A DNA stretch of 63,193 nucleotides, counting the filler, from Hausera hauseri (Eukaryota): NCBI GenBank assembly GCA_046269625.1. It is 11 parts of 11 records of this genome, joined end to end, with 100 filler letters (N's around TTAATTAATTAA, not from the genome) between each part and the next. Parts side by side here need not be neighbours in the genome. Positions count along the whole stretch, not along the records: positions 41,742 to 47,140 come from JBJURY010262177.1; 10 more parts are not named here. The stretch is one strand, 5' to 3'. Numbering within the stretch: the stretch's first letter is position 1; every line of letters starts with the position of its first letter. Shown piece by piece: positions 7,976 to 63,193 of the stretch. A program made the position numbers and the translations under genes. The notes under the pieces are model-generated. The model worked only from the letters and a program-made list of their open reading frames with translations. It was not told the DNA's origin and ran no database searches.

Positions 7976-7986
7976 CCTCGCCTTCT

Positions 7987-26271: not shown

Positions 26272-26371
26272 TGTGGTGCCCACAGCGGCCGGTGCCCTTT
26301 GGCCCATTTGGTCGGGCACGGCCGGGCATCCGTTGCCGCCGTGTCGGACCTATAGTCGGGCCCGTTTCTTC
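26272..26371 (+). mobile_element. TGTGG GC-rich element, copy A
   Basis: TGTGGTGCCCACAGCGGCCGG...CGTTGCCGCC...GTCGGGCCCG; aligns with copies B, C, D. Confidence 0.9.
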
Positions 26372-27947
26372 AGCTCTTCCACTATACACGACCAGTTCGA
26401 CAGCATTATACACTCCAGAAGGATGTGATATAAACAAACCTTTACCGCAAATTCCTGAGGAAGACAAAAGGAATTGGACAAGTTAAAAGCAAAAAGCTCC
26501 AATTAATGTTACTCATAAGCTCCATATCAGTCTTTGCACGCATACGGATGAATTTACGGTACTGCCTCAAGAACTGATCTGAATGATCAAAGACAACATT
26601 AGTAAAATCGACGCAGCCTGTAAATGCGATCGCGACGATTCGGTTATTGATTTGAGTACGTCATCGAACAAATCTCCGCAAGTTTCATCTGGTTATACAA
26701 TAGTAAATGATGAGCATTTTGTTATGACAAACGGCAGCGTTAAAATTAGTGTCCTCACTATGAAGGATGTTAAAAAGATCTGTCGTCAAAGCGAAATTCC
26801 CCATTTTTATCGAAAACATCAAAGCCAATAAACCAATAAAATCTCGCTCGAATTCAAAAACCGAAAATTATTCAATAAGTTCAAATGTTTGTCGGTAATT
26901 TAATGGGAAATGATTATTTTTCAGTTGATTAATGCCCTCTGTCGTGTTTGATATTATCTGTCCATGGTATGCTCTCTCCAGGTCCGAGAATTTCTAAAAA
27001 TGGCATCTGTTGTAGTCAGGTTGACTTCTTTTTGCTAATTTCGTCCTTTACAGGACTAGCACTTATTATAACATCTTTACTTGTTTTAATTGTCAGTAAA
27101 AAGCTACGAAATTCAACAACTGACAAAACAACCGATGTTGAATCTGATTGTCAATCGGATGAATTTCCATTTAAAGAACATTATGCTAATACCAAAGATT
27201 TAAGTTATTCGGCCGATATTCAAGTAAATACTACTGACAAACCGTGTAAAAATGAATCAATTGAAACTCAAAATGTCGTTCGAAAGTTGGAAACCAGAAT
27301 ACAATGATAATCGTACAAATCAAAATTTCAAGGCAGAGTGTAACCGAATCAACGATGATCTTTTCAGTTTAGTATATCCGCAATTAGCTTTAACTAATAT
27401 CCTAAATTTACCGACGCAATCACCAAAAGTAAAGCCAACAATTTCCATTACCGAAAACTATGATTACGTCAGTTTTTCACATTCAGAAAGAGATTTTAGA
27501 CTATCCTTCATGCCAAGACTCCGAAATTCCTCTTATATTCACAAGCATCCTGAAACGACCCGACAAAGGTGCTGTTCTGTTAGACGTAGCAAAACTACTG
27601 TGGAATTCATCATCAACTAATACCCAGCCGGTGATAACTGCATTGATAAATTACTCGTTTCAACTTGAGGACAAACGAGTTTGAATACTTTTAATCAGTT
27701 CAAAACATGTTTGGAAACGCAGAAAAATTTCCAAAATCCTGTAATAAACATGCCAATTGTCTTGTCAAGTATTCGCAGAAAATTCTCCTATACTATATCT
27801 ATCTTTTACAGTGTTTGACATTATCGCCGAATAGTGATTTACATTTANNNNNNNNNNNNNNNNNNNNNNNNNNNNNNNNNNNNNNNNNNNNTTAATTAAT
27901 TAANNNNNNNNNNNNNNNNNNNNNNNNNNNNNNNNNNNNNNNNNNNN

Positions 27948-28546: not shown

Positions 28547-31297
28547 GCCAAGGAAATTTACCTTTTTCTGGAAGAAAGAACATTTAGAATAGTTCATTTG
28601 CAAATTGTAGTTGTGCAAGCGTTGGAAACCTAGTCTAAGATGTTCGTGTTGTTTGGGCGATGCCGATGTGACTAGTATGTCATCGATGTACGGGTATATA
28701 AATGGCAATTTTGAAAGGACTGAATCAATCTGCCGTTGAAAGGTTTGTGCTGCGTTCTTTAATCTGAACGGCATGAATGCGTATTCGAAAAGACCAAAAG
28801 GTGTTATTATGGCCGTTTTTTGGATGTCTTCAGGTGCTACCGGTATTTGCTGGTAGGCTTTTTCAAGATCTGTAGTCGAATAAATTGTGGTCTTGTGTAA
28901 AGAATGCAATATATCCTTAATTAAAGGTAGAGGATAAGCATCCATGGTAATGACGTTATTAAGTTGGCGATACTGGCCGCATGGACGGAATGTGCCATCT
29001 TTTTTGGTACGACGTGGAGTGGTGATGGCAACGGTGATTTTGACCGTTTTATTATTCCAGCTTGCTCGGGTGCAGAGAATTCCGCTTGGACTTCCTGTCG
29101 TCGGCGTGGTGAAAGTGAGCGGAGTTTTTGCCCAACGGGCCTAGAATTTTCTGTGATATGATGAAGCGTCGTGTTAGGCGGTCAAAATGCTGGGTCTTTT
29201 TTATTGTATGAAAACAAGATTTGGTTAAATTTTGTTGCATTTCTAGGCTAACTGTAGTAAGTGCTGTTGTTGTAATGGCAGTGGCTTGATTGGACTTAGT
29301 GTGAGAAACGGTAGTAATCGGGCCGCTTAAATCGGACTTCAACAGAAATGTAGGACTATTTATATTAGTCTTAGTAAGGCTTTTATTCACATTGGTTGAT
29401 GGATTCTTTAATATTGATTTTATAGTCGAGATATGCTGCATGATTGGTTGGTTATTTGTAGAGGTCGGACTATTTATATTGGTATTAATACGGTTTTTAT
29501 TTACGTTGGCTGATGGTTTTTTTAATATCGATTTTATAGGCGAGTTAAGCTGCGCGATCGGTTGGTTATTTGTAGAGGTAGGCTTTGTTGAACTGCTTTT
29601 AATGATCCGACATTGTCTACAATCTACAGGGAGGTTGTATCAAGATAAGAAATCAGATCCGAGTATTGGAGATTGTGTGTCGGCAACGATGAAAGTCCAA
29701 TTACAAATGTCGGAGAATGGTGGTAAAGTGAATGAAACCTTGGACGTGCCGAATACTTGTAAAGCTTGGCCGTTTGCTATGTACAGTTTAGTTGAAGTCG
29801 GTGAGGTAATAGATATTTTGGTGGATATTGGTAGAAGAGATACTTCTACTCCGGAATATATCAGAAAGGTGATTGGGTGATTAGACTCGGTGGAAATGAA
29901 GGCATTTAATGTGAAGACGGCATTCGTGCGGCTGTTACAATGACGAGGATAGCCTTTGCCAGCATACGCCGGAACATCTGGCGGCTTTGTCAGTTCTTTT
30001 GGGTGGACAGATTTGAGGAGTCGGGAGAATTATTATGGAATTGGTTAAGTCGACTGGAAAACGTGCAACCGTTGATGCAGTTTTGGGCTTTATTGCTGAA
30101 CCTATTATGGTAAATACAAACAATTTCAGATTTTTGAAAAGCGGGTGTAAAGAATTTACACCTCAAGCAACATTTGTTGGATTGGTCCTTGAATTTAGTG
30201 TGATAATAGCACACCACAGGTCGAGTAGTGGAGCTAGCGGATCTTGAATTTTGCGATGAAGCACGGCTATTATTGGGTGTGAATCGACCTTGTCGCGGCA
30301 TGGATAAATTGTCCAGTTTAGAAGTTAAAGCAGAAATGGCTTGGTGTATTGTCGTGTTTTCAGCCCGGAGAGCGTTTATTTGGTTATTAAGCACTAAGAT
30401 TTCAGCATTGGGTGGTGTCAAAGGTGGTTGTAATGTGTCTGCGACAATTAGAGTATGGTGTGTATTTAATATTTCATAGCTTTTATCAGCCAGTTGTGCT
30501 AACTTTTCTAACGTAGCGGTGTCTTTAACGACGGTTAGTAAAGCACGTATTTCTTTCGGCAACGATTTGAGGAAATATCTGCGCAATGAATCGGCATTGT
30601 TTGTCTGGTTCACTCCTAACTTGTTTAATTGTGTTTTTGATTTCCTATTGTGTTGTCGTTAAAATATTTGTGGATAATATTATCCAGAGAAGGTTCCGTG
30701 ATTTTTAGGATCGAGCTAAAGAGTGTCTTGTACAGGTCACCGCTTTGGAAAATTTCCGACAAGTTGGAAAGTTGTGACTTAATGTTGGAAGGCTTTGAGA
30801 AAAGAGTCGACAATATTATTCGACTTCAACCAAGCCGCATGAAAGTCCAACCACGTCCGGTTGGAATGTTTGTCAACGAAGTATTCTACGCAAGGTAGGT
30901 TTACAGTAGACGGTGGAGATAGAGGTGAATTTAGCGGTACACTTATAATAGGAATGTCGGCAAAGTCTTGTTGGTCCTTAGAAGACGCTTTTGGATTGGA
31001 TCCACCTAACAGACTGTAGTGTACAATCAGTATAGGTGTTGAAGACGAGCCGGTGTAATTTGTTATAATGACGGATTGTCGAAGTAAAGTCCGTTAAATC
31101 TGAAACGAAAATTAGAAAGAGTCGTTTGTAGTTGTAACATGCTTAACAATTTTGCAATTGTTGCTAATTTGTCAATGTAATAGGTTTGTGCATGCTTATT
31201 TTCGAATAACAAGACAAGTGGGACGAAATTATCACATAAGTCGGGTGTTCAGTGCGGTGCGTAAGACGGGCGCGCCCAAAATCCCTGCGATGTAACA
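28547..31297 (-). mobile_element. Ty3/gypsy element 2 (5' region, gag, protease, RT), truncated in RT
   Basis: gag with two CHCC motifs, DAYPLP, DLEKAY, TPFGLFEY, YIDDIL; paralogous to element 1. Confidence 0.92.
29353..29580. repeat. About 114-bp in-frame tandem duplication in the protease-RT linker
   Basis: ggactatttatatt at 29353 and 29467; encodes IKSILK.PS.NVNK twice. Confidence 0.8.
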
Positions 31298-31619
31298 GTC
31301 GATTTGCGCGACCTGAGTGGTAAACATTAGAAAAGGCGTCCTGTTTGGTTGATGTTTGACGTCGCTTTCCTGTAAACTTGGTAAATGTCTTTCCATAAAT
31401 TTCTTCTGCATCGATTCAGCCGGAATATCTCCGACCGACGATGTAGTACTGGGATGTTTACCACTGGCATTAAGGTAATTCTGGGGAAATTGTGAACTGT
31501 TGTCAAAATACTAGTCAATCAATTCTTCGGATAAAATTTTATATGTTAATAATTTAGTAGATTCATTAACATATGTATGACAGAAATATGACAAATTCAC
31601 TGACCTTTTTATGTATACT

Positions 31620-32200
31620 TTTTAAATCTTCTGAGACTCCAATGATAGACTCCGACAACGGTTGACATAATAATGCATGGTAATTGATGAAGAAATCAGG
31701 GAAATCGTGCAACAATAAGAACGTTGTACTGACAGCGCTCTTGTAGACTATTTGAATAAGTTTTTGTAGGTGATTATCGAGATACGGATGTAGAAATGAG
31801 AATGGATTGCAAATTGCTTGTAGAATTCCTGTGTGTATTCCATTGTTGTACTATAGAGCACTTTGGAAATGAATGATCGATGGGAAATGAGTTCTAACCA
31901 TAAGAATACTAATGATGGAGCACATTTTGGTCTTCTGACATTAAAGGTATGTGCGAATGCAGTCAAAGCATGATATTGGAACTCGACCATTTGTTCGTCA
32001 TCAACAAGGTGATGTCTATGACATTCGTGAATGAGACTACATACTAACATTGCATAAGCATCAATTTCCATATATCCGGCACTACGGTTTGCTATGAATG
32101 ATGATTTCAATTGTTTATGTGCTCTATCAACAACGTACATTAATGCTAATCGTAGGAATTTCTGAACGACTTCAGCGATGATACTCGTTAAACCATCTGT
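31620..32200 (-). pseudogene. CNOT1: CNOT1 C-terminal domain fragment
   Basis: IDAY..LV, AF...F...RP...P...F.WLELISHR.FI, LLLHDFPDF...YH. Confidence 0.8.
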
Positions 32201-32849
32201 GAAATATTTATTCTTTGCTTTGCCATCTTTGCTTAGGTCGCTTTCAACATTGACACTTATGAACTTTCATCAGATAAAATACGAGCAGTATTATCGTCAC
32301 TAAGTGCTACAGGTGACAGATTCATGATGTCTAGATCACTAAGTGATTTACTCCAACTATCATTCATTGCATATTCATTTCTCTTTACTATTCCAGTGTA
32401 CTTCGCATATTCCTATACTTCAGCCATTTTCAATTCACTGACACTCACATCGCTTGACTTGAATCTGGATCTTTTCGTTGCTCTGCTGTTGATTTTCGTC
32501 GATTCCGTTTGTAGGTAAAATTCCAAGGACCGACGACTTCCATAAATATTCAACGAGGAGGGACTAGCGCGCATGGCAACGAGTTCTTCACAATAAATTG
32601 TCGGGAGTCGTTTGCAATGTTTGGAAATTTTTGAAACAGATTGTTTTATCACTGGACGATGAAATTTGGCGATACGAGAGCTTTCCTTGAGAGATAATTG
32701 TGAACCCTTGTTTCTATTTCTATTAGACTTAATTAACTCGACGGTGTACACCTTATCGTTATTCACGTCATTCATGGCCATGTAGAAGATTTCATGTGGT
32801 GCTATTTTACAACCAATTCGTTCAACTCGACTAATTAAATCAGTTTCGT

Positions 32850-33390
32850 CGTTTCCTATTTCTCGAAATAAGTTTCTCTGACAGACTCTTAATTTTTTTG
32901 TCTGGAACCGTTTATCAATCATCTTTTTTTCAATATCCCCATCGCAGTATGTTTCGTCCTTTACGTGCAATGCCGATCTATTGGAAAGTTTATATTCGGT
33001 GACAAACTGCTTCTCGGATTTCGTATTGAAACTTTCATAAAATGATGGCATCTTACTAATAGAAAATGGATCTAACGTATGAAATGCATTGTCGTCCCTT
33101 TCAATACTTTCAACATTACTCGTTTCCTATTCGTCGAAATAAGTTTCTCTCACAAACTCTTAATTTTTTGTCTGGAACCGTTTATCAATCATCTTTCTTT
33201 CGATATCCCCATCGCAGTATGTTTCGTCCTTTACGTGCAATGCCGCTCTATTGGAAATTTTATATTCGGTGACAAACTGCTTCTCGGAATTCGTATTGAA
33301 ACTTTCATAAAATGATGACGTCTTACTAATAGAAAATGGATCTAACGTATGAAATGCAGTGTCGTCCCTTTCAATACTTTTAACATTACT
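32850..33390. repeat. About 270-bp tandem duplication (2 copies)
   Basis: Units start cgtttcctat at 32850 and 33121; the same peptide SFYESFNT.SEKQFVTEYK appears in two ORFs. Confidence 0.92.
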
Positions 33391-33544
33391 CGAACTATGT
33401 AATACGTAATCTTGGTCACCATCAGATAATTTCTGGTAGTGTATTAAATATTTTGACGGTACAGATTGACGATTTTCTACCTCAACAGACATGATAGTAC
33501 CAGTCACCTGTCTGCCATATCTAACGAAAGTCGGTACACTATAT

Positions 33545-33984
33545 ATATCTTGACCTAACGAAAACTCCTTTGACATCTGAAACCGACAAGACAATTTTGA
33601 ATTAGATGCTGTAAGTTCCTGACTGGTAGAAAATTTGTTTTGTCGTGGAAAGAGACGAAACTTGTTTAGACTTGTTAAAGGAACATCTAGATTTGTGCAC
33701 GATGTTCCTTTATCAAAATCATACACGTCGGTATCAGACAACACAGGCTTAACACGAAATTTCTGTGCGAATTCCTCATACTTTTCCAAATCATTTGAAG
33801 TTTGATTTTTTTTCTGTAAAATGAATTCCGTTAAATTATCAATGTTATCGTTACGTGGTTCGATGATTAATCTTCGAGCAAGGAACCAATAGGTATTTAC
33901 AAATCGGTCATAACCCAACGGAGTTTTCTTGTGTTCCACCAGAGCTTTTTCTCCATCTAAATTACTTTCGTACAATCCGACAAC
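33545..33984 (-). pseudogene. BPTF: BPTF/NURF301-like fragment, fused downstream to a chromo/Tudor-like piece
   Basis: PLGYDR....YWFL.RR.IIE and F.LGQ motifs; then KYLIHY at about 33435-33455. Confidence 0.6.
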
Positions 33985-35939: not shown

Positions 35940-37427
35940 TTAACTCATCATGCCATCGTCTTGTAAGAAAACCTCCATCTCTCCACTGGAACTCTTCACA
36001 CAGCACAGTTTAATATCATTAAGAGAAATATGAGAATATATAAGGTCATCGTCTCGAAGGGTCAACGTTTCGTCTTTTAACTTAGACACGATTTTATCCT
36101 TAATCTTCTGGGGTAATGGAAGCTTGCTCACTCGTTGATCTCGACCGGGATGTATGCCAATTGCAGATGATACTGTCATAAATGTCAGCTGACAAAGTGA
36201 CACTGGTTGTGAAGAAATGTCATTCATTAATGTTATCAAATCCTCGTTTTGATAACTTTGAACAATGCTTCTTACAATGAGCTTCTTACAGCTCGTCCAG
36301 GACATATCAGATACTGTCTTTAAGTCATTTTCGCTGAGGTAATATGCCAGTTCTACATTCCCAGCTAGTAATGCCATACATAAAGGGGAAATCGAAAAAT
36401 CTGTTTCCACCACATCTCCTGTCAAAACTGTCTTTGCCTGTACATCAACAAGTGGCATTCCAGCTCGAACTAATTTCAGAATAACATTTGTGTAACCTTG
36501 AAGGATTAGTTTATGCAGAATGATTGGTTCAAGGAACGATACATCAGCACCTCGATCCACAAAGCATTCAATGCAGTGGGCAGTATCTCCACCAATGTAT
36601 GGGTTCTCTAGGAGATACGAAAGAGCGGATTCTGTTTTGTTTATTTGGTTAACAGCTTTAACATTACACCCTGCATCAAGTAACATCAGCATTGCTTCTT
36701 TCCTGCATTTTTTAGCTGCCAGCATCAAAGGAGAGTAACCATCAATGTTCTGGCAATCCAGGTCACTTCCTGCACTAATCAGCTCTGTCAGAAGTGATGG
36801 TAATGGAAATGTAAATTCCAAAGCGCGCATTAAAGCGTTGTTACATTTGATATCTTTCACATTAACATCAGCGCCTGCGGTTATCAGTTCTTCTATTAAT
36901 ACGTAATTGTCACTATCCACAGCATACATAAAGGCTGTGACTCCCTCGATGTTTTGCTGATTAATATACTCCTTGCTCTTGGCTCGTTTAATTAAAAACG
37001 AAACGTTACTGTAACAGAAATGCTTCACTGCCAGCATGAGAGCCGTGTCTCCATTGACATCTTTGTCATTCATTTCAGCCCCATGGTCTAGCAGAATCCG
37101 CAACAACTCCACGCTGTCATCCCTAGAAGCTGCTATCATTAAAGGAGTTTCCAGATTTTGACTTCTTTCTCTGACTGACGATCCAAGTTTTAGCAAAGAT
37201 TCAACTCTTCTTCCTGCACAACGGTCGTATCTGTGTATCGTCTTTAGAAACTCAATCATAGACAGGGGACAGACGATGCTATTTCTTGTCACAGGACTGA
37301 TATCTGTTGTGACAGGAAACTCTTCATATTGCATCTTTATCAGAGATAAAGAACAACATTCTGGCGCCAAGTAACCGCTCTGAGCTGAAGGCTTGTGTTG
37401 ACTTTCTTGTGAGATTTCAAATTTCAT
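35940..37427 (-). CDS. Ankyrin-repeat protein with C-terminal SOCS-box-like motif, single coding exon
   Basis: 495-aa open frame; TPLMIAA, G.TALMLA, G.TAFMYA, GYSPLMLAA repeats; SLCQL....V......V.KLPLP..IK. Confidence 0.85.
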   Translation of the reverse strand: MKFEISQESQHKPSAQSGYLAPECCSLSLIKMQYEEFPVTTDISPVTRNSIVCPLSMIEFLKTIHRYDRCAGRRVESLLKLGSSVRERSQNLETPLMIAASRDDSVELLRILLDHGAEMNDKDVNGDTALMLAVKHFCYSNVSFLIKRAKSKEYINQQNIEGVTAFMYAVDSDNYVLIEELITAGADVNVKDIKCNNALMRALEFTFPLPSLLTELISAGSDLDCQNIDGYSPLMLAAKKCRKEAMLMLLDAGCNVKAVNQINKTESALSYLLENPYIGGDTAHCIECFVDRGADVSFLEPIILHKLILQGYTNVILKLVRAGMPLVDVQAKTVLTGDVVETDFSISPLCMALLAGNVELAYYLSENDLKTVSDMSWTSCKKLIVRSIVQSYQNEDLITLMNDISSQPVSLCQLTFMTVSSAIGIHPGRDQRVSKLPLPQKIKDKIVSKLKDETLTLRDDDLIYSHISLNDIKLCCVKSSSGEMEVFLQDDGMMS

Positions 37428-38844
37428 GTCGATAGTTTTTGTAGTTCACCTGGTTCGAAATGAAATAAAAGTAAAGAATTTAAAACAAAAATAAAATGAC
37501 GTGTTGATGTAATTCTAAAATTAACGTAAAAGATTCCTTGTATAAAGTTGCCTTGCTAAAACTGTAGCGAAAATTGACAATGAAATACCAAACTGGGTAG
37601 TAGCAATAGATGTCAAAGAAATTAAGTAATGATCCCATTAATGACTAAAAGCGCAAAGAGGAATGCTGAATTGGTATCCGCTCTTCTTCATAACCCAGCA
37701 TATGACTGTGTTATGTTGTCACCATACCGCCAATATGTTTTTACTTTCTACGAGAATGTCTCCATTAGCCAATATTTGAGGCTGGGTGGACCCCTGGAGT
37801 CGTTTTGGTAGAAACAAAATTCAACCCACCATAGCTGGGACTGAACCACCGACTAACCGATCGAGTGTGCACTGACCACTATCGACTGCGAGTACATGGA
37901 TAAGAAAGGAAACAAATGATACCCAAGCAGCAACACTAAAACAATTTATTAAGATGCTTTGACGGAATATCTCAAAATAGAATCCTTAAACTCAACTTGG
38001 AACAAAAAGTATCTACTAAAAGTGTCGACCAAATCAAGAAAAGAAGTTGGAAATAGCTGAGCTATATATTAAGGATGCAGAAATGAATACACCAACGGGT
38101 TGTTCTAAAACGGAATCCAGCGTGGAACAGAGCTAGTGGGCAATCTAGAGAGATTTTGAACTATAGTGACAGAACAGACAGAGACTGGTAAAACGGGTAA
38201 TGCGCTGAACTGACTTGCCCGTGGAAGATATGATTGGAGAAAATTAATTTATGCCTTACTCTTCAAGTGGATGTATGTGTTGAAGAAGAGGCTGCTACGG
38301 AAAGTCATTGTAGGAAATAGATTGTATTAGTAGAGAAGAGACATAAGGTTGGTGAGTGACATGCAATCTTACTGTTGATGAACATATATGGGAGGACTGC
38401 AATCTCAGATACATCAACTTCCATAATTTTAATTCCAATATAGATACAGTTTTTTTTCTGTATGGAAATGTGTGTGGAGGACCATGTTGATGTTGGAACG
38501 CATAATACAAACATTTGTAAATAATAGACTCGGACAAATACTGAAAATTATAACACATTTCACATTTCAAACATTGAAGACAGGAAAGAAATCTAATTAA
38601 AATTAAGTGAAAGAAACAAAAAGAGAACAATAACACTGGTGCCCAAGGAAAGAACAGAGTCGGGAGACCTTCAAAGAACCCAACACAATAAATATGTGTT
38701 GGAAAGACAAATGCAATGGATCGTCAGAAATGAACATCTACAGTGATTGTCTTATGTTTCGCCATTGGCATGAACAGGAAATACTGGAATAAATAGTAGT
38801 AGTAGCAGCAGTGGTGGCAGTAGTAGTAGTAATAGTAGCAGGCG

Positions 38845-41741: not shown

Positions 41742-42014
41742 CGCAGGTTACCCTCAAGGTGGCAACGATTATAAGCAACTACGATTCGATGCATCATCAT
41801 TCATTTATTCATTCATTGAATCATGCCTTTCAAACGTAGTCATCCTTACTTTATTGCTTTGCTTAAAGCATCGTCGAGACATAAACGGAACATGCTGCGA
41901 TTATTTCCACAGTTTGTAGTAGACTATTTGATGGAAATTTTGTACAATATCTTTGTGGGTCACGTTGACATTGATAGTGGAAAGCGGAATTTACTAAAGT
42001 ATCGAAAACGACTC
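41742..42014 (+). mobile_element. Polinton fragment (small conserved genes), cut at TGTGG 42015
   Basis: MPFKRSHPYFIALLKA... homologous to 56045-56308 (-); similarity stops at aaaacgactc|tgtgg. Confidence 0.85.
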
Positions 42015-43408
42015 TGTGGCTTTGTTTGATAAAATATCCACCGATAGAGAATAAACGGTTTGAGGTTTAAGTCAAAAAAAAGTCAGCCATTGATAATAAA
42101 ATTCTATTATAAAAAAGTAAAATCCAATTTTAAATCACAAGTTTAAAAATTTGATCCAAGGAAAATATCGGATAACGTTCTAAGCTTAAATCCAATATGT
42201 AAAAAAATGGATAATAACGAAAATCAAATTTCAAAAGCTGCATTATCCTGTATTTATTAAAACAATTTTTTCGTGATTTAATGGCCGGTACAACAGATTA
42301 TTTTTGCAATAATGTTACACAAATGATAAAGTCCAGAAAAGTCATATATGAAAAAAAATAAAAAAATAAATAAAACAACAAGTATAAAAATGACAACTAT
42401 TATATATATTACCTTCACACAATATGCCAGTACTTAGTTACAAAGATCATATTGACAACAATGATGGTGAACAACAATATCTTCAAACAGATTTTGAACC
42501 ATACAAGAAACACTGCAATTCAGCGACTGACACGTGTTCCAAAACACTAATTGCCGTATGTTATCTTTTATAGCCTACCGCTGGAATAAACCAACACGAT
42601 TAACAGCTGGACTTTACACTTTTAACGACAAGGCCATGGTGCATAACCGACTGATTGCAACGAATTGAATTGAATTTAAAATGCAACTGATTGTCAGAAA
42701 AATCAATAAGAAACCCAATTCCCGACGGTGTTTCATAAACCTTAGAATCAACAGTGAAGTTAAGAATTACACATTGTCAATCTCCATTTATGGAAAATTT
42801 CGAAATGCTGACGCCGCAAACTCATAAGTGCTATTTATAATGTTAAATTGTCAATACTTGAAGAACCATATATCTACGATTATTTGAATGGTTTGCTTTA
42901 TTTGTCAAAGTGCCATGAGCAAAATTTATGGATCACAACTTCCGGAATCGTTTCTTGTGTTTGTAGATTTTGGACACACATTGGTACGAATACTTGATCA
43001 GTCAACGCGAATCCTCGTTTAAATGAATGAAAGAAAAGAGATTTGTTATTCTGACATCGACGGAATGAGTCGCCATTGATGGATGAGGAGCGCGATAAAT
43101 CAGTACAACTGCTGGCTGGTGTGTGGAGAATACTGGACTTGCTTGTCGATGGTGATGATATCAATTTTTGTTTGATTTCCTGTTGTTCCTCGGGTAGACT
43201 TATTTTCAGGAGTATGTTGACGATCGTACAGCAGATCCATTCACGGATAAGGGGGTGGCATTTAAGACTCTGCAATATCTTGTTGATAAGGGGGCTGATC
43301 ATTTTCATGGCACTGGGTGATGTTGAACTGGTGATAAGTAAGGCAATGAGATTTGTCAATTCGTCTGTTGACACAATAGGTTTGTATGTCGATAAATTTG
43401 TTACTGGC

Positions 43409-43501
43409 AAATCTCGAGGCGGGAGATCGGGCCTGACGCGGCGGCAACGGATGCCCGGCCGTGTCCAACCAAACGGGCCAGAGGGCGCCGGCCGCTGTGG
43501 C
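43409..43501 (-). mobile_element. TGTGG GC-rich element, copy C (outermost about 7 nt missing)
   Basis: CCACAGCGGCCGGCGCCC...CGTTGCCGCCGCGTC.GGCCCGAT; directly follows the 3' UTR of gypsy 3 on the same strand. Confidence 0.9.
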
Positions 43502-46500
43502 AAAGTGAAAATTATAAAGGGTAAAAGAGACAGAGAAAAAAGGGCAAAACTGAAAAGTGTGTGTCAATCGGTCTTAGTGTGGATAAGACTTTGGGTGCCT
43601 TCTAGTGATTTTTCCCTGCTATACTTGCTGAATGTGACTCTGCGTGTTTTGTCTTTGGGCGGTGTGTTTGCTTAAAGAGTTTGAAGTTGGGGAAAAATTG
43701 TCGAATTTTGTTGTAAGTGTTGTGTCGTGCAAAGATAAGTCAGCGCAAAGAGAAGGAGAAGGTGAAGGAAGAAAAGAGATTGTTGAAGACGGATGATTAA
43801 AGGTGTTTAAGAAAGTGTTAGAAGATGGAGGAGTGATAGAAGGTGTAGTGGCGGATAAAGGGAGAGAGAAAAGAGTTAGAGTAGAAGTTGGAATTGAATT
43901 GTGTGAAGGAGTGGAAGTGGAAGATGAAACAGAAGTAGTAGTAGAAAGGGGAAAAGGGATAGGGAAAGAGGTAAAGAGAGGAGAAAGTTGTGAAACGGAA
44001 GTGAAAGGAGTAAAAGATGATGTGTTAGGAGAAAGGGGGGAGAAAGCGTCGAAGATGAGGAATGTGGGAAAGAGAGGAACAGAGAGAAAGATAAGACGGG
44101 GAAGAGGTATAAGGCGAAGGACAGCGAGAAGATGGGGAAAGCAAAGGAATGTAGTTGGAGGGTGGTGTGCAAGAGGTTAGAATGATGAAAGGTATAGATA
44201 GAGAAATTGGTGAAGTCGAAATGGTATTTGATGGAGGGAGTGCGGTAAAAGGAGAAAGCAGGTTGTTATAATGGGATGAAGGAGGTTTTGGAAGGCTTGA
44301 AGGTGCAAAATCGGATGGGAAGAGAGAGGCTGAATTGTGAGAAGAAATTGGAGTGGAAGTTTTGGGAGAAAACGCGGGGGAAAGTGGATTAAGACATTGA
44401 GCAGAGATGGAAGGAGAATTGTTGGACTGCTGAGCGTCACATGAAGATGTTGGTGGAGAAGTGGTTTCGATGGGAGACGTTTCGTCAATGAAGAAAGCCG
44501 GATTAGCATTATTGATGTGAACGGTTACTTCTTTGTCGTTTTTGAGAGTGAAGATATTGTGCGAGTGTAAACGAATTACTTTGTAAGGGCCGACATACTG
44601 AGGTTGAAAGCCATACGGCGTCTGATTCTTTAACCAAATGAACTTGGCAGTATATAAATTGTCGGGAATGTAGAGTTTATTTGCGTTTAATAATCTGCAA
44701 AATGAGTCTTTGCTGTTCTCAACGAAGTGCCTCTGTGCCGCTTGTATGGTTTCGTCTGTAGGAATATTGTCCAGCTCAGTCAGCTCGAATAATGATTTGG
44801 TGGAAGTGCCAAATAATGCTTTTGCAGGTGAACTGCCTGCAGAAGTTGATGGTGTGTTCCGCCAGCCAAGCAGAACGTACGGAACGAGTGTGGTCCAACC
44901 GCGATTGGACTTAGCAAGGATTTTGAGAGACGTTTTCATTGTTCGATGAAAGCGTACGAGAAGGCCGTTCGATTAGGGATAATATGGTAATGTGTGAATG
45001 TGGTTAATTCCCAATCGATTGATAAGAGCTTTAAACAGGTTCGATTCGAACTGTGGATTTTGCCCGAAATAATGTGGTGAGGTGATCTAAACCTGCTAAT
45101 CTAAGTGCGGATGAAAACGTCTGCGATGGTTTCTGTGGTGGTGCTCCGAAGCGGGACAGCTTCTGGCCATCGCGAGGAACGGTCCATCATTGTGAGGGTG
45201 AACTGATGGGCGTTGTCTAAGGGTAGTGGGCCTACAAGGTCAATGTGCACAGATTCAAAACGAGACGTGCAGGGAAAATGAAATTGTGGTGGCTTTAGAT
45301 GCTTAGTAACTTTGTATTTTTGGCATGCCACACACTGCCTAACCCATGTCTGAACGTCAGAGTGCATCGACGGCCATACTACTTGGCTTTGTAAAAGTCG
45401 AAAAGTGGCCTTGGCACCAGGATGATGCAACGAATGTACGCTGTGGAACGCTTCCTTTTGAAGAGACTCAGGAGGAATGACTTTAGGAGTATTAGGTTTG
45501 GAGGTGTCAAAGGCCACACCGCCAATGGTTTTGCAGGATTTAAAAGATTTAAGGATGTCAGGAGGTGGTTGGTTTGGCTGAAGTTTGGACTGAGGAAAAT
45601 TTGGTGTAAAATCAATCGAGCAGATTGATCTGGACAAAAAGTCAGCTACTAAATTGTCGACCCCGTTTAAGTGCTTAATTTGAAAACTAAATGTTGACAA
45701 ATACGATATTTGCCTCTCCTGACGTTGAGAAGGCAATTTCATGGTGAGAATTTGGAGCAAGGGCTTGTGGTCCGTTTGTATTGTAAAAGTTCGTGCAGTT
45801 AGCAAATGTTTAAAGTGTATTACGGCAAAAACCATTGCAAGCAGCTCTCTGTCAAAGGTGGAATATCTTTGCTCTTGTGCTGTGAATTTGCAAGCAAAGA
45901 ATTCCAATGGATCATGGGATCCATTTTTAACTTGATGGAGGACAGTACCTGCAGCTGTTGTGGATGCGTCGATGGTTAAGAAGAGTTCTGCATGGGAGTC
46001 TGGATAGGCTAATATTTCGACAGTTTTTAAATTGTCTTTGAGGTGATCAAAATCATTGACTAGATTGGTGGTTTATTGAGTAGGATGTTTTTTCTCGCCA
46101 GAACTTAGTGATGCAAATGGATCGGTTAGAGTGGGGCAATGCGGAACGTACTTGTAAATAAAGTGCAAGGTTCCGAGGAAAGAATGCATCTCTTTTGATG
46201 TACGTGGTAGTTGTATGTTTTTGAGCTGTGTGTTGTGGTCTGTCTGAAGTGAATGTCCGGAGGAGCTAATAATATGTCCTAGGAAATTGACCTTATGTTG
46301 AAAAAAGGAGCATTTAGAAAAATTGATTTGCAAATTGATTTGGTGTATGCGCTGGAAAATTAGATGTAAGTGTTCAGAGTGTTGTTTCAAAGAGGATGAT
46401 GCAATTAAGATATTATTAATATAGGGATAGGCAAAGTCTAAGCCTAATAGGACTGTATTTATATGCCTTTGGAAGGTCTGGGAAGTGCTACGGAGTCCAA

Positions 46501-47140
46501 AAGGCATAAAAAGGTATTCAAAAAGGCCGAAAGGTGTAATGACAGCCGTTTTCTGAATATCTGCTGGTGCCACCGGAATTTGGTGGTATGCTTTATGTAG
46601 ATCAATGCAGGAAAAGATGGTCGAACCATAGAGCCTGTGTAGAATGTCGTTGATTAATGGTAAAGGGTAGGCATCTATTGTTGTTATGGTGTTAAGTTGG
46701 CGGTAATCACCGCATGAGCGAAAGGTGCCATCTTTTTTTTGAACAACATGTAGTGGTGAAGACCAGGTGTTTTTGATCTTCTGATTATGCTTGATTTTTC
46801 AAGGTCGCGAAACTCAGCCTCCACTGCCTGTCTGCAGCGAGGCGATAGCGGGCGGACCTTTTGCCGTACTGGTATTTGATGTGCTGTTACAATGTGATTG
46901 AAGGTGGATTGAAGTGGTACGAATGATTTGTCCTTTTGCAACAGACGCGTGCAGGAGGACGAAATGTATTTCTGTAAATTAAAAGGCAACGATGACAAAT
47001 TATCCGATGGTGTCGATGGATCGTGACTAGATGCAGTTGAGGTATGAGTTGTAGACAAGGTGTTATTTGGTGCAGGATGTTCGTGTTGAAAATGGTGTTG
47101 GCAGCTGTGCTATTAGTAATGGGTGCCACGCAGTTGGCAA
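43502..47140 (-). mobile_element. Ty3/gypsy element 3 (RT, RNase H, integrase, Ser/Pro-rich tail, 3' UTR)
   Basis: TPFGLFEY, RYSTFDRELLA, TDHKPL, HHPG, HIDLVGP, LLGWRNTP, Y.GPY.V, terminal TRRVTF. Confidence 0.95.
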
Positions 47141-47240: not shown

Positions 47241-48520
47241 AAACCAGCTAATAGAGAAATACTTTGCATAAAGGCTAGTCGGAAACTCCATTTTGAATCA
47301 TCGGCTAGTTCAATGATTGCAGGAATGAGATTTTGACTGGCCTGTTTGGCCCCAATTACTTAAGAAAGACAATCTAGTTTCGATATTAAATTGAGACGAA
47401 CCTCTGCATTTTCATCCTTTAATTGAGTAAGAAAAATTTGTAAAATATGTTCAGTTGTGCTGTATTTTTCAACAATTGGGGATAAACCTAACAAGACACC
47501 AGTAAGGCTAATTTTCAATTGAATATTAGGATCATTGATTATATCTTTCACGATTGGAATGAATGGCTTCACAGTAACGGATTTCCTAATGTCTTTTGGT
47601 AAACATTCACAAAAATCTTTTAATTTCCCAGCAGCAGCTGATTTCACTTCTGCTTGCGAGCCTTTCAACAGAATTGAATAAACATCGACTAGTGCGTTCT
47701 GGACCAAATCAGCGCCGATCAACTTTTAGATTTCTATTAAATTTTCAGTAGCAGCGTGTTGAACACGCCATGATGTATCTTCTGTGCCTCCACTAAATAA
47801 ATGTATGGCAGAATTTTTTATATCATCTTTGGGAAACACTTTGCAAAAACTAACACAAGAGGATACACCTAATTGTCTGAGAGAATCTTGCTCATCCTGA
47901 GCAATTATTGGTAGCAATAACAACATGTCGGATTTTACATGCTCCAAATCCATAGCGAAAACAAATTCACCAAGACGATAAGCAGCCGATCGCCGAACCA
48001 TAGGAATGTCGTCTTATGCCAACGGTCGAAAAAGTCGTCGTAATTCAGTTTTCAACGAATTCGGCAAACGTGCATAACAAACACTAAGTAAACCACAAGC
48101 CGATGATCGACTAGTAAACCATTCACCAGAACTCAAACATCGTATTAATGGAACAAAATGTTTTCCTAAATCCTGTGGAGTATGATTGGCAGCAATTATT
48201 TGGAGTGAATCCACTGCTTTATCACGTACCACAGTTTGTTCAACAGCAGCTGACGTTTCAAGAGGTGGCAGTAAACAATGCGAATATTCTGGACCACCAA
48301 CCAACGGTACAAATGCACCTAATTGTTCTGCTAATGCCAATAATACTTCATCTTCATCATACACAGTGTCTGTTAAAAACGGAATTAATTCGTTTCGAGT
48401 CCTTTCCATTCCAAGGGCCAACGCAACAGTAGGAAGCTTTTTAATACTTATTAATCGCGTTTGAATATCATCGTTTCTTAACTCATCGATTAAAACAGCA
48501 ATGGGAAAAAGATTATCGTA
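47241..48520 (-). pseudogene. PPP2R1A: PP2A scaffold A subunit pseudogene (HEAT repeats), no introns seen
   Basis: [67 protein letters not shown]; in-frame stops at about 48014, 47726, 47360. Confidence 0.92.
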
Positions 48521-49467
48521 AGAGTGTTAAAAATTCGCAATGGAAAGAAATATGAATGTTACTTTTGTGAAAAAATCCTTGTCCGTGTGGCCCGAAATAA
48601 ACGAGTGAAGTTCCTTCCCATGTTTTATTACTTCGGTTCTCTAACGTAACAAGTCTCGCCTGAATATCATTATTTGAACTGATCAGTTGTTAAATTTGTA
48701 TCTTCAATTTTTTACGAATGAGTGGATTTGGTCAGTTTCAATTTCTCTTTGTTGTTGTTGTTGTTCCTCTGGAATTGTTTCCGAATTGTCTATATTTTCT
48801 TCCTTACTTTTAAAACTTTTATCTCTTGGCGATTGTCCGATAAAATCCGTAGTTCATGATACTATTTTAACTCCATCCGAGGGAAATTTGTTAAAATGAT
48901 TGTCGTTTCCTATCTCAAATGACACTTGATAATTCTCTAACGTGCTGTTAGCAGAATTCGATATGGAATATCTCATCCTTTTTCTAACTGGTGAGTGTCC
49001 AGAAATTTCGGAGTCATTGTGACATTGATGAGCCGAACTATCACCCAATATTGAGTCAAAGCACCTCGGAGAAATTTGGAGTTCATTTCAGTGGAGGTAA
49101 TAATCGCATTTTGACTAACGTATTCAATAGTGACTAGGTGCTGTCGTGATCTTTTGGGTAGCCTTTAAACATATCTTTTAGAATACATTGCCAGGTATTT
49201 GGGAATTAAAAGTTGTCCTGATCTTTGCTCAATGTCCACGGAAAATTTTGTCTTTTGCTGGTCATTCATCAAAATTTCCGACTTTTGCATGGAAAATTCG
49301 TAAGAGTCGCTAGTTAAAATTTTCATCGGTAAGCTTGATGAATTTATTAGGTTTCTGATAACGGATAAGAACAGATTGAGAATTTTGTACAGATGAGCTG
49401 ACTGAATCGATTGATTCAGATTTGGGGATAACGTAAAACATTCTTCCCCGTTCATGTGTAAGTAAGT

Positions 49468-49589
49468 CATCTTGTGAAATTTTCGCGGCGGGAAATCGGG
49501 CCCGACTATGGGCCCGACGCGGCGGCAACGGACGCCCGGCCATGTCCAACCAAATAGGCCAGAGAGCGCCGGCTGCTGTGGGCACCACA
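49468..49589 (-). mobile_element. TGTGG GC-rich element, copy B (122 bp)
   Basis: TGTGGTGCCCACAGC...TCGGGCCCATAGTCGGGCCCGA...ACAAGATG; outer end abuts pPolB. Confidence 0.92.
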
Positions 49590-53487: not shown

Positions 53488-53887
53488 GACGACGACGAAG
53501 ACGCTTAAAATGATCGCACAAATTACCACGAGCATATTCGGATTCACCGCAAGGAGTTGAGTCGGAAAAAATTTGAATTGAACAAATTCCGGACACTAGC
53601 ACATTTGGATTTACCGCAACTAGTTGAGTCGGAAAAATTTTGGACTGTCCCAGTTTCGGACATCTGCATATTCCGACTCACCGCAATGAGATGAGTCGAA
53701 AAAAAATTTTGAACTGATCCAGTTTCGGGCACCTGCATATTCGGACTCACCGAAACAAGCTGAGTCCAAAAAAATTTTAGACTAACCCAGTTACGGACAC
53801 CTGCATATTCGGACTCACGACAACTACGACGACGACGAACGCACAAATTTCCACGAACTCATAATGAGTACTACTACTACTACTACT
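53488..53887 (+). repeat. Probable Polinton terminus: 4.3 x 67-69-bp tandem repeat ending in (ACT)n
   Basis: Units start at 53532, 53599, 53666, 53735, 53803; (TAC)n run 53869-53887 fits the AGTAGT...ACTACT Polinton end. Confidence 0.7.
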
Positions 53888-55909: not shown

Positions 55910-56234
55910 ATATTATGCTGTAGAACCAATAAGTCCACCCAGTAATTACGTGAAAATCGGTAGAATTGCACCAAGGAACCCGCCATCTTGTTGGTACGTG
56001 ACCTCCCGTTTCAGTCGTTTACTACGGGTGTTGGCTAGACCAGAGTCGTTTTCGATATTTCAGTATACTGCGATTTCCACTACCAATGTCAACGTGACCC
56101 ACAACGATATTGTACAAAATTGCCATCAAATCGTCTAGTACAAACTGTGGGAATAATCGCAGCATGTTTTGCTTATGTCTCGTAGGTGCCTTGAGCAAAG
56201 CAATAAAGTACGGTTGATTACGTTTGAATCGCAT
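55910..56234 (-). pseudogene. Small conserved Polinton gene with C-terminal GG-FLG hydrophobic tail
   Basis: EI/AI.YN...G motif and QQDGGFLGAILPI; second copy at 41823. Confidence 0.65.
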
Positions 56235-56509
56235 GTTTTTTTAGACGTATTGATGCTGATGAGACGTAGTTGTTTATAATCGTTGCCACTGTGATGGTAA
56301 TTTGCGTCTAGCTGCTGCTTTTGTTGTTCGAAGCACAGAAGTGATTAATCGCTTGACTGTAACGACACCTCGTTATGATACACGTTTCTTACCGCCGGAC
56401 ACCCGCTTGGTAGTAGGTTTACGTTTAACAATTGTTTTTGCAAAATTCTTCATTTTTTATCATAATCATGTCGTCAATTTTCGAATTTGTTTACAGACAC
56501 ACCACCTTT

Positions 56510-58539: not shown

Positions 58540-58990
58540 TGCGCGTCGATAAATCTATAGTGCACGTGCTAATCGATAGTGCATACTGTGCACTATCGAT
58601 CGGTAGTGTGCTAGGCGACGGTGCTAAGGGCGCTTTTGCACTTTTGACAAAGCGACCGCTGCAGTGCAGTATTGATCGAATCGATCGGGACAAAGTGCTA
58701 ATCGATAGTGCACATTAGGGCACATCGATTGGTGCACTGTGCAGGTGTGCAACACGTGCGTGTGCAAAATCAATAATATCGGATTTCCTATATTCTCAAT
58801 ATTGATTGGGGCACGGCACCGAGTGCCATCGAAAGCACACATTATGCATTGTCTGCATGTGCAGTTACACAGTCGAATATTTGCCAACCGGGACAGACGT
58901 GCCATAGGTCATTCCGCTATAAATTGAAAATCAATAATAGCAATATGGCACATATACTGGCAGGTGCAGTACTTGATGTACTATCGATCA
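58540..58990. repeat. Palindrome-rich short-repeat region (ATCGAT / GTGCAC), probable Polinton subterminal region
   Basis: atcgatagtgca-tactg-tgcactatcgat hairpin at about 58572-58600; gtgctaatcgatagtgca repeated. Confidence 0.55.
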
Positions 58991-59517: not shown

Positions 59518-59639
59518 TGTGGTGCCCATCGCGGCCGGTGCCCCTTGGCCCATTTGGTTGGGCACGGCCGAGCGTCCGTTGCCGTCGCATTGGATCCATA
59601 GTTGGGCCCGATTCTCCGCCTCGAAAATTTTACAAGATG
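59518..59639 (+). mobile_element. TGTGG GC-rich element, copy D (122 bp)
   Basis: Collinear with copy B from TGTGG to ACAAGATG. Confidence 0.92.
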
Positions 59640-60759
59640 GACGTGTTGCCTATCTTAAGAAGTTATGTAAACGGCCCGATTAGACAAGCTTTTAAATAAT
59701 ACTAATCACAAAATTATGGAATAATTCTTAACAAAATCTATTCATTGAAAAGAAACCACCTAAATTGTTAAATGCAAACCGAGACGTCTGCGATTATTCG
59801 TTAAAAAATCAGTTGATATACGGTCGTTTTCAACGCCAACTGACAAGATAATGCTCAAAGGTAACAAAGATAAAAGGCATAATAGTCATTTCGACGATAA
59901 TTCAGTGATCAAACCAACCATCAGTCTGCAATAGATTCTTTCAAACTCTATTCTAAGTTGCCATTCCAAGCGCAGTTAATTTTGAGACAATTTAAATATC
60001 ACTGAAAAGGAATTATTTTATTATAAGTAATTCCGGTATTCCTAGTTCTACAACAAAACGTATGGTAATGATGGTTATATCAACAAATTAATTTACAAAA
60101 TTCTCAAATTTCCCCTCATATATCGAAATTGTCCAGCTTTTGGCACGCGAAAAATCGACAGAAACTTACGCTTACTACCAGGAAAAGTGTTTCTGGCAAT
60201 GTTACACCAATTGGCAGTCCCGTTATACCAAAAAGACGTTATCGAAACTCCAACAAAACTAATTACTGACATTGATGTTACACTTTCACAATGATTTTAC
60301 GTTCGCTCTTACTCATCTGGATTTTCAGTCTTTATTGGGCCAACAGTTTCGACAATACACAGCATTTACATCTGGCAGTCAAAATTCCGTCGTTTAAAAA
60401 CCGATCGCGTATCTATCAAGGCTGTTTAAGAGTTCCAAGATATTTGTGTATCACTCATAAATGTCACAAGTTATTCTGAAAATCGTTTCACCGTATCAAA
60501 ATGAATCTGACATTTATACAGTTTTAAATCCCAAAAGTGAAAGCGAAATTGTTATTCGGAAAATATCTCAGTTATTGATCATAGCAATGGGAAATAATTT
60601 CCAACTTTCCATACTGACCAAATGTCGAAAAAAGACCAATTGACAATTTATTTCACGATATGCCGAATTTGCCCGGTGTTACGGCTGAACATTTTATAAT
60701 GGAGGAATGTTGTTGAAAAAGAATACATTTTTTGAAATTTTTCAAGCCATATTACAAGA

Positions 60760-61150
60760 ATTTGTCTTTTGGAAAGTTCGATTCAAATTTTTTAGACATT
60801 GTAATTGGAAATTTTGAATTTCTACTGTTCTTAAAGAAATTTTATCCTGAAAATTTCGCCAGGCAGATTTAGTACAGCAAAGGAATATATCAAGAGATGA
60901 TAAACATTCATGGATGTGGCGGTGGTCGTATTGCGTCGACAATTGGACAAAAAAAGATATGCCTACAATGCAAATCCTTCCAAATGACAAATAACTTTCC
61001 AATTTTCTCATTATCTTTCCATTCTACACCGTCTGCCTGAGCATCATACAAGAGATTAAAATCATCAAATCTTGCGGGATTGCCAGCATGCCGCTTCAAA
61101 TTCAACCCTGCATATATCTGAGTCTTTTCTTGTTCCGATCAACATCTAAA
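60760..61150 (-). pseudogene. Possible retrotransposon gag relic
   Basis: F..F....A....W.D.EK..KL..L.G.A pattern across a frameshift. Confidence 0.3.
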
Positions 61151-63193
61151 TCCTTCTCCAATTAGTTCTTAAACCACGAATCTGACAAGTTAAGAATCTT
61201 TGAATCCGTTTTAACTTAACCAAGAATTTTTGTCCACTATGCCTTCAAGGTCATAACAAATATTTTTAAACCTAAGTTTTCGATCTTATCAAACTTTTCT
61301 GCGAAATACTAGTACACAATAATAACGTGAAATGATAAGTCTTTTGAAGAACAATAGTATTACAAATTTTGAAGCAAATATTTCGATCTATCAAAATATG
61401 TGTCAGAGTAATCTGTCAATAATTCTACAGCACTGATATAGATCGATCACAAAAAACCTTTTCAATAACTTCGTCGTGCTGGCGTTGTCACCAATCTTAA
61501 GTTATGCATGGGAAACGTTCATAACTAGATATTTGCAAGCATTAGTAATATTAAGTTGTACTAGTGTAAAAATTAGAGATACTCTAATGAATTGACATGA
61601 ATCAATTGAATATTTACGTGAACAAATTATAGCCACGATGAACATCATAGCACAGAAATTCTGTAGGGTCTTGCATATCACAATAATGAATCTTGGCTAA
61701 CGTTGTATAAAGAAGTATCCTAAATGAAGTAAATTGATAATTAATTGAATCGGGTAAACATGTTCCGAAGAAAATAAAATAACAAATTTTTAGCATTAGA
61801 TCTCTAGCACATTAAGGAAGATAAATAGACTTATTGAGTAAAGCCTGAATGAAGCAATATGATTGCTACTGGACTCAGTTTACTTTCAGACGAATTTGTC
61901 GAATATTGATGGATTGTTGGCATGGAGCTGAATCTGGAGATTTTCCAGCATTTGTTTGAGGATGATCAATTTCTGGCATTAGGGCCGGAAGATTCGGTGA
62001 TTAATATTTTCGATGATTTCACTATTTTGTTATTTCTCTGTTCTTGTTCGTCGTCGTTTCCTCGACATTTCCATTACCAACATGGCAGTTCTATTCGAAG
62101 ATAATATGGAATGAAATTTAGTCGATTCTGATGTTTCCTTAGGGCGATTTAAAAATTTCTGAAAATATCTTCGAAAATAATCGATACTGGTATATTTTGC
62201 AAATAATAGAATTATGACTCATATTTGTTTGCTCAAAGGATTTTGTTTGTATTCATAGTTGAAATTGGAAATATGAACAAATTTTTTAAATAGAAAATGC
62301 ATCAAATTTGTTTCTTATTACAGATTTCGTGTGAAAACCCGTCGAATATATTATTACCACTAAAATTCGTTTTTCAAAATACAAATTAGTTAATTATAAA
62401 GGAAATTGTAAACAATTTTTATTTAAAAATATGACAAAATAATCACTTTTAACTATATGATATTGTTTTTATGTCTTATATTGGTACATTGAGAGTGACA
62501 ATGCGACGTAATAGTAAAAGGCATCATTAACCAGATTAGTGTGGGGATACATGAATTTATGAACTTCAAAATCGGATCTGTTGAAGAAATTGTTTCCTTC
62601 TCTAGTTGCTTTTGTAGTGCTACCCTTAACGAAACCTGTGGAAAGTGAAATTCTTGAGCCCTTACGAAATAAACTGAACGAGCTGCGTGATATCCAGTGA
62701 ACTATATCTGAATAAGGGTCTTGATATTGATCGAAACTAGTTTCGTGTTATTGTAATTTGTCCATTAGTTCAAATAACAGTGGTTTTTCTTTGACACAAG
62801 TCTTGATTTTTCTGATAACCGATATGCACAATCGGAACTACTTCCTGTGAGTACAGCTCATATATAGAACCTGATATTCTCCATTATTAAATAGAAACAT
62901 TTAGTGCTAACGACTTGCCCAGGCTACAAAGTCTGCTGTGTCAAAAGCAAGCTGGGTACTACAATGATCTGTCATGAAGGAATCTTGCTTTGTTTGACTG
63001 CCCACAATCATTGCAATTACTCTACAGATTTATTTTACAAATTCCATTTTCCCAGGTACATTAAAATAATCAATCAATTTGCATATCATAATTCCCAAAT
63101 GAGCTCCAAGATAAGGTACTGCGTATTTCATAACTACGCGGGAATACATTAAGAATCTTACAGTATTTACCTATTGCTTATTACCTCTTTACC

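Follow-up and report, generated by a model that had tools for sequence, protein, structure and literature searches.

Downstream of the pol gene of a gypsy element in the genome of Hausera hauseri, at the place where a 3′ long terminal repeat (LTR) should lie, there is a 1,487-bp unit of gene-like DNA that stops abruptly at a Polinton gene. What is this unit, and how might it have come by its contents? A previous reading, made from the sequence alone, had proposed a cargo-filled LTR or a complete Pack-type unit, integrated into a Polinton. We examined the unit in the window, the whole stretch of 63,193 nucleotides that was analysed, which consists of 11 short contigs and 10 spacers (44 N, a 12-nt linker with stops in all frames, and 44 N) placed between 4816 and 59090. 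The contig of the unit spans 41742-47140 and is without any N. Linkage is not implied across spacers, and related copies on other contigs serve as evidence of family behaviour rather than of linkage. A draft assembly in short contigs such as this one could contain mis-joins.

The 1,487-bp unit is real as a feature. On the minus strand, positions 42015-43501 open with a GC-rich segment, the head (copy C), and end with CCACA. The minus-strand order described earlier held: gypsy reverse transcriptase (RT), RNase H and integrase, the tail of pol, 62 nt, head copy C, an ORF, and CCACA. The ORF that had been described after the head, running to 42898, was borne out by translation. We give about even odds to the reading that 42015-43501 is one LTR-type terminal unit, with its interior replaced by pieces of spliced host mRNA, that integrated into a Polinton.

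The head family and its cargo

Four copies of the head are present in the window. With a profile made from these same four copies, and with an alignment, we located copy A at 26272-26383 (plus strand), copy B at 49466-49589 (minus), copy C at 43397-43501 (minus; E 1.6e-27) and copy D at 59518-59641 (plus). Copy C matches profile positions 8-124 with a 12-nt internal deletion, confirming that it is short of the first 7 positions, as had been noted. A permissive profile search of the window yielded no fifth copy, and there were no matches to the head in bacterial and archaeal genomes. Identity among the copies is 73-81% when the whole profile is compared, and in their blastn cores it reaches 83-91%. 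Three of the four (A, B and D) share an exact TGTGG start, and the head opens with a hairpin of TGTGG, 3 nt and CCACA. Conservation extends over 95-122 nt and is followed by different cargo; the sequences downstream of A, B, C and D are mutually unrelated by local alignment. Heads B (49468-49472) and D (59635-59639) diverge at the same point, just past an ATG, as if the head contributed the start codon or this point were a hotspot of switching.

Several identities for the head were rejected. Considered as a structured RNA, it had z values of −0.25 to −2.0 and a compensatory change in none of the 27 predicted pairs. Searches for a tRNA, 5S or other RNA family gave no Rfam match at the gathering threshold (the only one, for head B, had E over 1) and none with ARAGORN. 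Despite the ATG that ends B and D, a spliced leader was dismissed: the cargo of C begins mid-gene, and at 122 nt the head is too long, spliced leaders being far shorter. There is also no target site duplication (TSD) and no continuity of the flanks around A, B and D that would make the head a complete short LTR.

Alternatively, the head could be the terminal inverted repeat (TIR) of a Ginger-like or Pack-TIR DNA transposon that captured its cargo at the DNA level, in which case copy C would have landed at the 3′ end of gypsy 3 and the 42015 junction would be due to a later deletion or rearrangement. The TGTNR start and the conserved length fit Ginger TIRs, given as 40-270 bp (PMC2836005), and differing cargo behind a common end is Pack-like as Pack-TIRs are described (PMC8277862). 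The same Ginger report has the TGTNR terminus as common to gypsy LTRs and Ginger (PMC2836005). Such an element requires neither a polypurine tract (PPT) nor a primer binding site (PBS). However, no transposase was found by Pfam near any of the heads, and the flanking 4-mers fit the targets reported for Ginger1 (CCGG/CCGT) or Ginger2 (RTATAY) in none of the four cases.

The cargo bears on this question. Cargo 1 of copy C (42901-43398, minus strand) lies in sense in an open frame. With tblastn it was 83% identical to P0242 over 42 aa and 29% identical over 137 aa to P0243, a Protopolystoma xenopodis protein that is its best named relative. P0243 in turn matched residues 3170-3352 of human HUWE1 (E 2.8e-10), and a profile of cargo 1, P0242 and P0243 matched HUWE1 at 1.1e-9; the ORF alone did not match HUWE1. 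Cargo 1 is thus assigned, transitively via P0243, as an internal fragment of the E3 ligase HUWE1, at about human residues 3180-3330. Both P0242 and P0243 extend upstream in frame, which indicates that the start of cargo 1 lies in the middle of coding sequence and does not coincide with a splice acceptor. Beyond its 83% match, P0242 changes suddenly to a few hydrophobic residues and a stop, as if it were reading into an intron that cargo 1 lacks. An alignment-based search for longer HUWE1 relatives found none, and P0243, the sole query, gave no further match past 42900. Other hits to cargo 1 were set aside: with the fragment alone, Pfam MCM (E 0.03), PDB (E 0.9) and Atlas (at most 0.81) were uninformative, and P0241 (E 6e-33) proved to be an artefact of repeat summation.

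Cargo 2 (42281-42736, minus strand), also in sense, is probably a decayed gene of the Ly6/CD59-like (three-finger) type, judging from motif, hydropathy and translations. It has a signal-peptide-like hydrophobic start at 42736, a domain rich in Cys that takes up about 76 codons and is crossed by two frameshifts, and a CCxxDxCN motif at 42460-42437 that is followed by a hydrophobic segment of 23 residues. The motif occurs once in the window and in 1 of 3000 shuffles. No profile match was significant; Pfam CD59 reached an E of only 0.054 among 149 peptides. The Ly6/uPAR hallmarks listed in PMC8763315 are ten Cys, a C1xxC2 spacing, C10-N, a signal peptide as well as a GPI tail; in cargo 2 we recognised C10-N, both hydrophobic ends and nine Cys (by eye, in three frame pieces), with C2 absent. 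A hepatitis B surface protein, which appeared at E 0.012 and weaker, was read as a matter of Cys-plus-hydrophobic composition.

An intron donor had been proposed near 42410. The site (42418-42407) falls inside the frame that leads from CCxxDxCN into the hydrophobic segment, and it is more likely that the supposed intron is the GPI-anchor segment of the Ly6-like gene. The segment occupies the position of a GPI signal, and a short polar end would result if splicing joined the donor to the next acceptor, near 42247. Since any T-rich DNA tends to encode hydrophobic residues, the segment is not proof of a GPI signal. Ly6-family genes with introns are reported from schistosomes (PMC3812095).

Host-gene fragments were also found behind two of the other heads. 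Head A is followed in sense by a PAK-type CRIB/PBD fragment at 26496-26609 (plus strand), which matched Pfam PBD at E 1.3e-4 (22.6 bits against a cut-off of 21.3, with stops read as X) and in PDB only PAK4 at E 0.41. The PP2A scaffold subunit A lies in sense 940 nt past head B (47243-48526, minus strand), as identified by tblastn with three named references and by a tree. It comprises 428 codons in one frame with three stops, is intronless and runs off the contig; in the tree it groups with the 77%-identical P0122, next to Opisthorchis, a placement that the program flags as a possible long-branch join. Together with the Protopolystoma relative of cargo 1, this makes a fast-evolving, flatworm-like animal the probable host. 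The first 940 nt past head B were not assigned by Pfam, and the first ORF there had no Atlas match. In the 3.6 kb downstream of head D, no Pfam families were found in 12 frames. Coding-like stretches are present there at 60911-61138 (minus strand, antisense) and at 62895-63149 (plus strand, sense, Cys-rich).

The identified cargo is thus in sense in four of four cases (PAK, PP2A-A, HUWE1 and Ly6-like). As in retrocopies, it is partial and intronless, comes from several genes and has no poly(A); the introns of the parental genes would have been absent from the RNA that was copied, and intronlessness is weaker evidence here than it is in a well-annotated genome. Its lack of introns and its constant sense orientation speak against DNA-level capture by a Pack-TIR element, the TIR ends of which should face cargo in either orientation. 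Elsewhere in the window, 35940-37445 holds an intact single-exon ankyrin-repeat gene of 501 aa, which we take to be mollusc-like, unlike the flatworm-like cargo, so that DNA of more than one organism may be present in the window.

The CCACA end and the Polinton junctions

The unit closes with an AT-rich tail (42015-42280, minus strand, 27% GC) that contains AATAAA at 42258 and CCACA at 42019-42015, and which we interpret as the Ly6 3′ UTR and/or R-U5. At its end a Polinton gene is cut (41742-42014, plus strand). This gene is 81% identical over 275 bp to a homolog at 56041-56306 (minus strand), and the homology starts abruptly at 42016. The contig of the homolog, which we read as Polinton, has a P-loop ATPase on one side of it and an rve integrase on the other. 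The cut had been defined by an uninterrupted homolog at 56045; we found this homolog to be continuous across the junction, although stops and frameshifts show that it, too, has decayed. Likewise, CCACA does stand at the sharp cut as the inverted repeat of TGTGG, but its last CA is also present in the homolog and only CCA is informative. By chance, CCACA would be found at the cut with a probability of 0.0011 when four registers are allowed, or of 0.005 once the CA is taken as given.

The cut gene is antisense to the unit, which suggests a target rather than mRNA cargo. Heads A and B lie in comparable surroundings. Head A cuts the frame of a Polinton-type polB at TGTGG: tblastx homology of two polB copies extends as far as approximately 26220, and at the head the frame is interrupted. 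Head B cuts a Polinton-type polB (DNA_pol_B_2, Pfam E 1.1e-4), again at TGTGG, in the orientation opposite to polB. The flank of head D was not recognised as Polinton. The orientation of the Polinton flanks is mixed, with A on the same strand and B and C on the opposite one; set against cargo that is always in sense, the flanks look as targets would. On the Polinton contig, rve was detected at E 2.6e-7, and the ATPase by Walker A only (ABC_tran, E 0.004). Beside polB, rve and the Walker A ATPase, the Polinton label is based on gene order and on motifs that are usual in Polintons. That contig also has short tandem repeats of ~65-70-bp units at 53518-53826 and, at its end, a palindrome-rich stretch balanced in GC and AT (58560-58900) that is possibly a Polinton terminal region. 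In all, three of the four intact family ends (26272, 49589 and 42015) lie in Polinton coding DNA, a bias with p of 0.006-0.05 when a Polinton share of 12-25% is assumed, in a post hoc comparison with small n.

Alternatively, one or both junctions might be chance rearrangements or assembly mis-joins, and the 1.5 kb might never have been mobile as a unit. The end is single-copy, the draft contigs are short, and two of the five terminal nucleotides are common to the target. We regard this explanation as improbable: the contig is without N, chance would rarely put CCACA precisely at the cut, and junctions between a head and a Polinton are seen independently at A and B. Within the 63 kb, no second copy of the tail was found by blastn to E 5, by alignment against shuffles or by a 20-mer search with three mismatches. 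One match to the tail on contig D, with a score of 42 that beat all 100 shuffles, was rejected as gapped and AT-rich with no similar end after it.

The form of the ends also distinguishes the readings. Neither alignment nor profile search detected an inverted head at 42015, where only 5 nt match, and an inverted repeat of just 5 nt fits LTR ends and not a long TIR. Together with cargo that looks spliced, this weakens the proposal of a complete Pack-type unit. A Ginger-like or Pack-TIR origin, under which CCACA would be a coincidence with a probability of 0.001-0.005, appears unlikely to us. The ends instead agree with an LTR-type unit: the family start is TGTGG (in three of four copies), the end is CCACA, and the two form the 5-nt inverted repeat, with copy C itself being without TG.

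The unit is bracketed by a repeat of 7 nt in direct orientation, at 43501-43495 and at 42020-42014; with both strands counted, the window contains this 7-mer only five times. Five of its seven nucleotides are forced by the hairpin of the head, so that the repeat adds a coincidence of just about 1 in 16. The hairpin and the repeat offer a microhomology route by which copy C could have lost its first 7 nt.

Gypsy 3 and the place of its 3′ LTR

Upstream of the unit, gypsy 3 is represented by RT, RNase H and an integrase zinc finger at 45104-46798 (minus strand; Pfam RVT_1 3e-26, RT_RNaseH 3e-25, Integrase_H2C2 1.5e-17), broken by stops and frameshifts. An integrase core with a GPY motif and a Ser/Pro/Thr-rich tail follows at 43564-45062, as defined by translations and by a tblastn search in which P0001 matched at 50% over 220 aa as far as 44406, and the last stop is at 43564. 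The pol region has 304 homologs, the best named ones being gypsy Pol; it is 67-68% identical in nucleotides to gypsy 1 and gypsy 2, and we provisionally call it CsRn1-like. The contig stops at 47140, upstream of RT, which places the 5′ end of the element and its Gag outside the contig; in the window, both ends of one element never share a contig.

Head copy C begins 62 nt past the last pol stop, directly downstream of pol as is expected of a 3′ LTR. The 62-nt spacer (43502-43563, minus strand), at the expected site of a PPT, is pyrimidine-rich (7% G, 51% T). The sequence-only reading was right that no PPT adjoins the head; the nearest purine run of at least 8 nt is at 43617-43609, 107 nt upstream. 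No PBS better than three mismatches in 11 was found after heads A, B and D within 1.5, 2.2 and 3.6 kb, respectively, of the same contigs. Units with these heads may exceed their contigs, or they may be solo LTRs. We hold only tentatively that the gypsy 3 family has this unit as its native LTR, with a duplicate at the other end of the element. Otherwise the unit would come from a non-autonomous family and would have become attached to gypsy 3 later, the PPT and the 7 nt being lost in the process.

Gypsy 1 provides a comparison. It has a conventional 5′ LTR of 359 bp (7617-7997 together with the PBS, plus strand), whose terminal inverted repeat of 9 in 10 nt was equalled in 20 of 500 shuffles. 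The LTR is followed, after 11 nt, by a degenerate PBS of the tRNA-Trp type at 7987, which matches 8 of 11 nt. Alignment showed no similarity of this LTR to the head or the unit. LTRs need not align between elements with 67% pol identity, and the ordinary LTR of gypsy 1 therefore weakens the gypsy 3-LTR reading without refuting it. A 9-nt inverted repeat with TGTGG/CCACA at 7485-7493 and 7914-7922 is probably due to chance (17 such pairs in 701 nt). For gypsy 2, no PBS or LTR ends were recognisable, and a GC-rich patch precedes gag (30900-31700). Its Gag (29990-30658) carries the CX2HX9CX3C (CHCC) motif twice, as is characteristic of CsRn1 Gag. Its pol contains a 114-bp duplication (29350-29582). 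Other transposon-derived sequences in the window are an open 589-aa hAT-like transposase frame at 2502-4271 (DUF4371, zf-C2H2_12) and the RT of a non-LTR retrotransposon at 16425-19170 (Pfam RVT_1), which we assume to be Tx1/L1-like and fish-like.

The head could instead start a long non-autonomous LTR-derived element of the Bs1/LARD type with internal cargo. The contig of copy C would then be a nested mosaic in which gypsy 3 and the Polinton piece were joined to the element by deletions or microhomology, the 7-nt repeat may mark a join, and the unit would not be an LTR. Internal cargo is the arrangement described in published cases (PMC5131818, PMC6431247). Sense cargo arrays also lie upstream of both other gypsy elements, one of which, gypsy 1, owns an LTR: abutting, intronless fragments of NMD3 and KDM5 at 5817-7408 (plus strand; Pfam, PDB KDM5B), in sense to gypsy 1, and of a WSD-motif gene and CNOT1 at 31569-33984 (minus strand; Pfam, PDB CNOT1), in sense to gypsy 2. 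The latter array includes a 274-bp tandem duplication of 95% identity (32849-33392). The rarity of the 7-mer, two of whose five occurrences bracket the unit, and the microhomology offered by the head hairpin also fit. On the other hand, an element with short LTRs should have a PBS after the head and a second, direct head copy at its 3′ end, and neither was found. The 7-nt repeat is largely hairpin-forced, and the flank before head C resembles the tail at 30 nt (p 0.04) but not beyond, p being 0.6-0.99 at 60-130 nt. We consider such a mosaic doubtful, with a chance of roughly one in four expressed loosely. The LTR-type terminal unit is the best single reading; of the cargo-filled unit proposed at the outset, the TG...CA ends, the host-gene cargo and the Polinton location stood, and its identity as an LTR has no firmer standing than that.

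Probable capture of host mRNA and known systems

For the LTR-type terminal unit, the events may have been as follows. Host mRNAs would be co-packaged in a gypsy particle, and reverse transcriptase crossing U3 would switch template to a host mRNA and then back. A gypsy integrase would insert the copy, in this case within a Polinton gene, and would have made the CCACA 3′ end. Lineages would keep the head while the cargo differs: PAK in A, PP2A-A in B, HUWE1 and the Ly6-like gene in C. Capture from RNA, which is common to this reading and to the nested mosaic, is in our judgement probable. A bolder version, to which we lend limited credence, is a Polinton-preferring gypsy family of the CsRn1 type that uses its U3 as a cargo bay, in which arrays of host mRNA are swapped, duplicated in each cycle and left behind as solo LTRs.

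If the cargo does lie in the LTR, each cycle would double it and solo-LTR formation would fix it. Chimeras of several genes could arise quickly in this way, as could templates for small RNAs directed against host genes. Decayed core-gene fragments are present in at least 5 of the 11 contigs and could mislead annotation, and the apparent Polinton preference would make it possible to test whether one kind of mobile element targets another. In the literature covered, mostly titles and abstracts, we found no case of protein-coding fragments inside LTRs, gene capture in flatworms being among the subjects searched, and nothing relevant on insertion into Polintons. Capture of mRNA by LTR elements is already known, but in the papers covered the cargo is located between LTRs, and the host sequence described within LTRs is confined to small-RNA promoters; protein-coding cargo inside an LTR, if that is where the cargo lies, would be new to them.

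Several described systems resemble the unit in part. PwRn1 of the CsRn1 clade (PMC2582038) shares the CHCC Gag of gypsy 2 and the GPY motif of gypsy 3, the degenerate PBS of gypsy 1 may correspond to its tRNA-Trp-type PBS, and its LTR of 381 bp is close to the 359 bp of gypsy 1. As described, it has a PPT and short cargo-free LTRs, both of which are missing from the 3′ end of gypsy 3. Like the unit, the miniature terminal-repeat retrotransposons (TRIMs) Cassandra, Helenus and Ajax (PMC10886601) have host-derived sequence inside the LTR; in that account, however, their LTRs are short and contain a promoter from 5S rRNA or tRNA, while the unit carries kilobase protein-coding fragments and has no Rfam or tRNA match. 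The heads share with Ginger1, Ginger2 and animal Pack-TIRs (PMC2836005, PMC8277862) a TGTNR end, a terminus on the 100-bp scale and variable host DNA, but the unit differs from them in having no inverted second terminus, misfitting target 4-mers and cargo that looks spliced. The planarian Burro, as summarised in PMC6431247, is a gypsy element with host-like domains in intact ORFs, in contrast to the decayed, copy-specific cargo of the unit. Plant Ogre LTRs of 1.9-6.5 kb (PMC6431247) indicate that long LTRs are workable, with gene fragments inside them not described in that source.

The closest likeness is to LTR-mediated retroposition in animals and to maize Bs1. Template-switch capture, multi-gene chimeras and re-mobilisation are documented there (PMC5131818), and gene capture has been described between LTRs or after pol (PMC6431247, PMC7264820). 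Like the unit, these products consist of partial, intronless, sense fragments of several genes, without poly(A) and fused to an LTR (PMC5131818). In the cases described, cargo replaces internal ORFs between normal LTRs, whereas that of the unit lies 95-122 nt inside TG...CA, after pol, and, unlike in those cases, each head in the window has different cargo. Products of LTR-mediated retroposition can move again as non-autonomous elements (PMC5131818).
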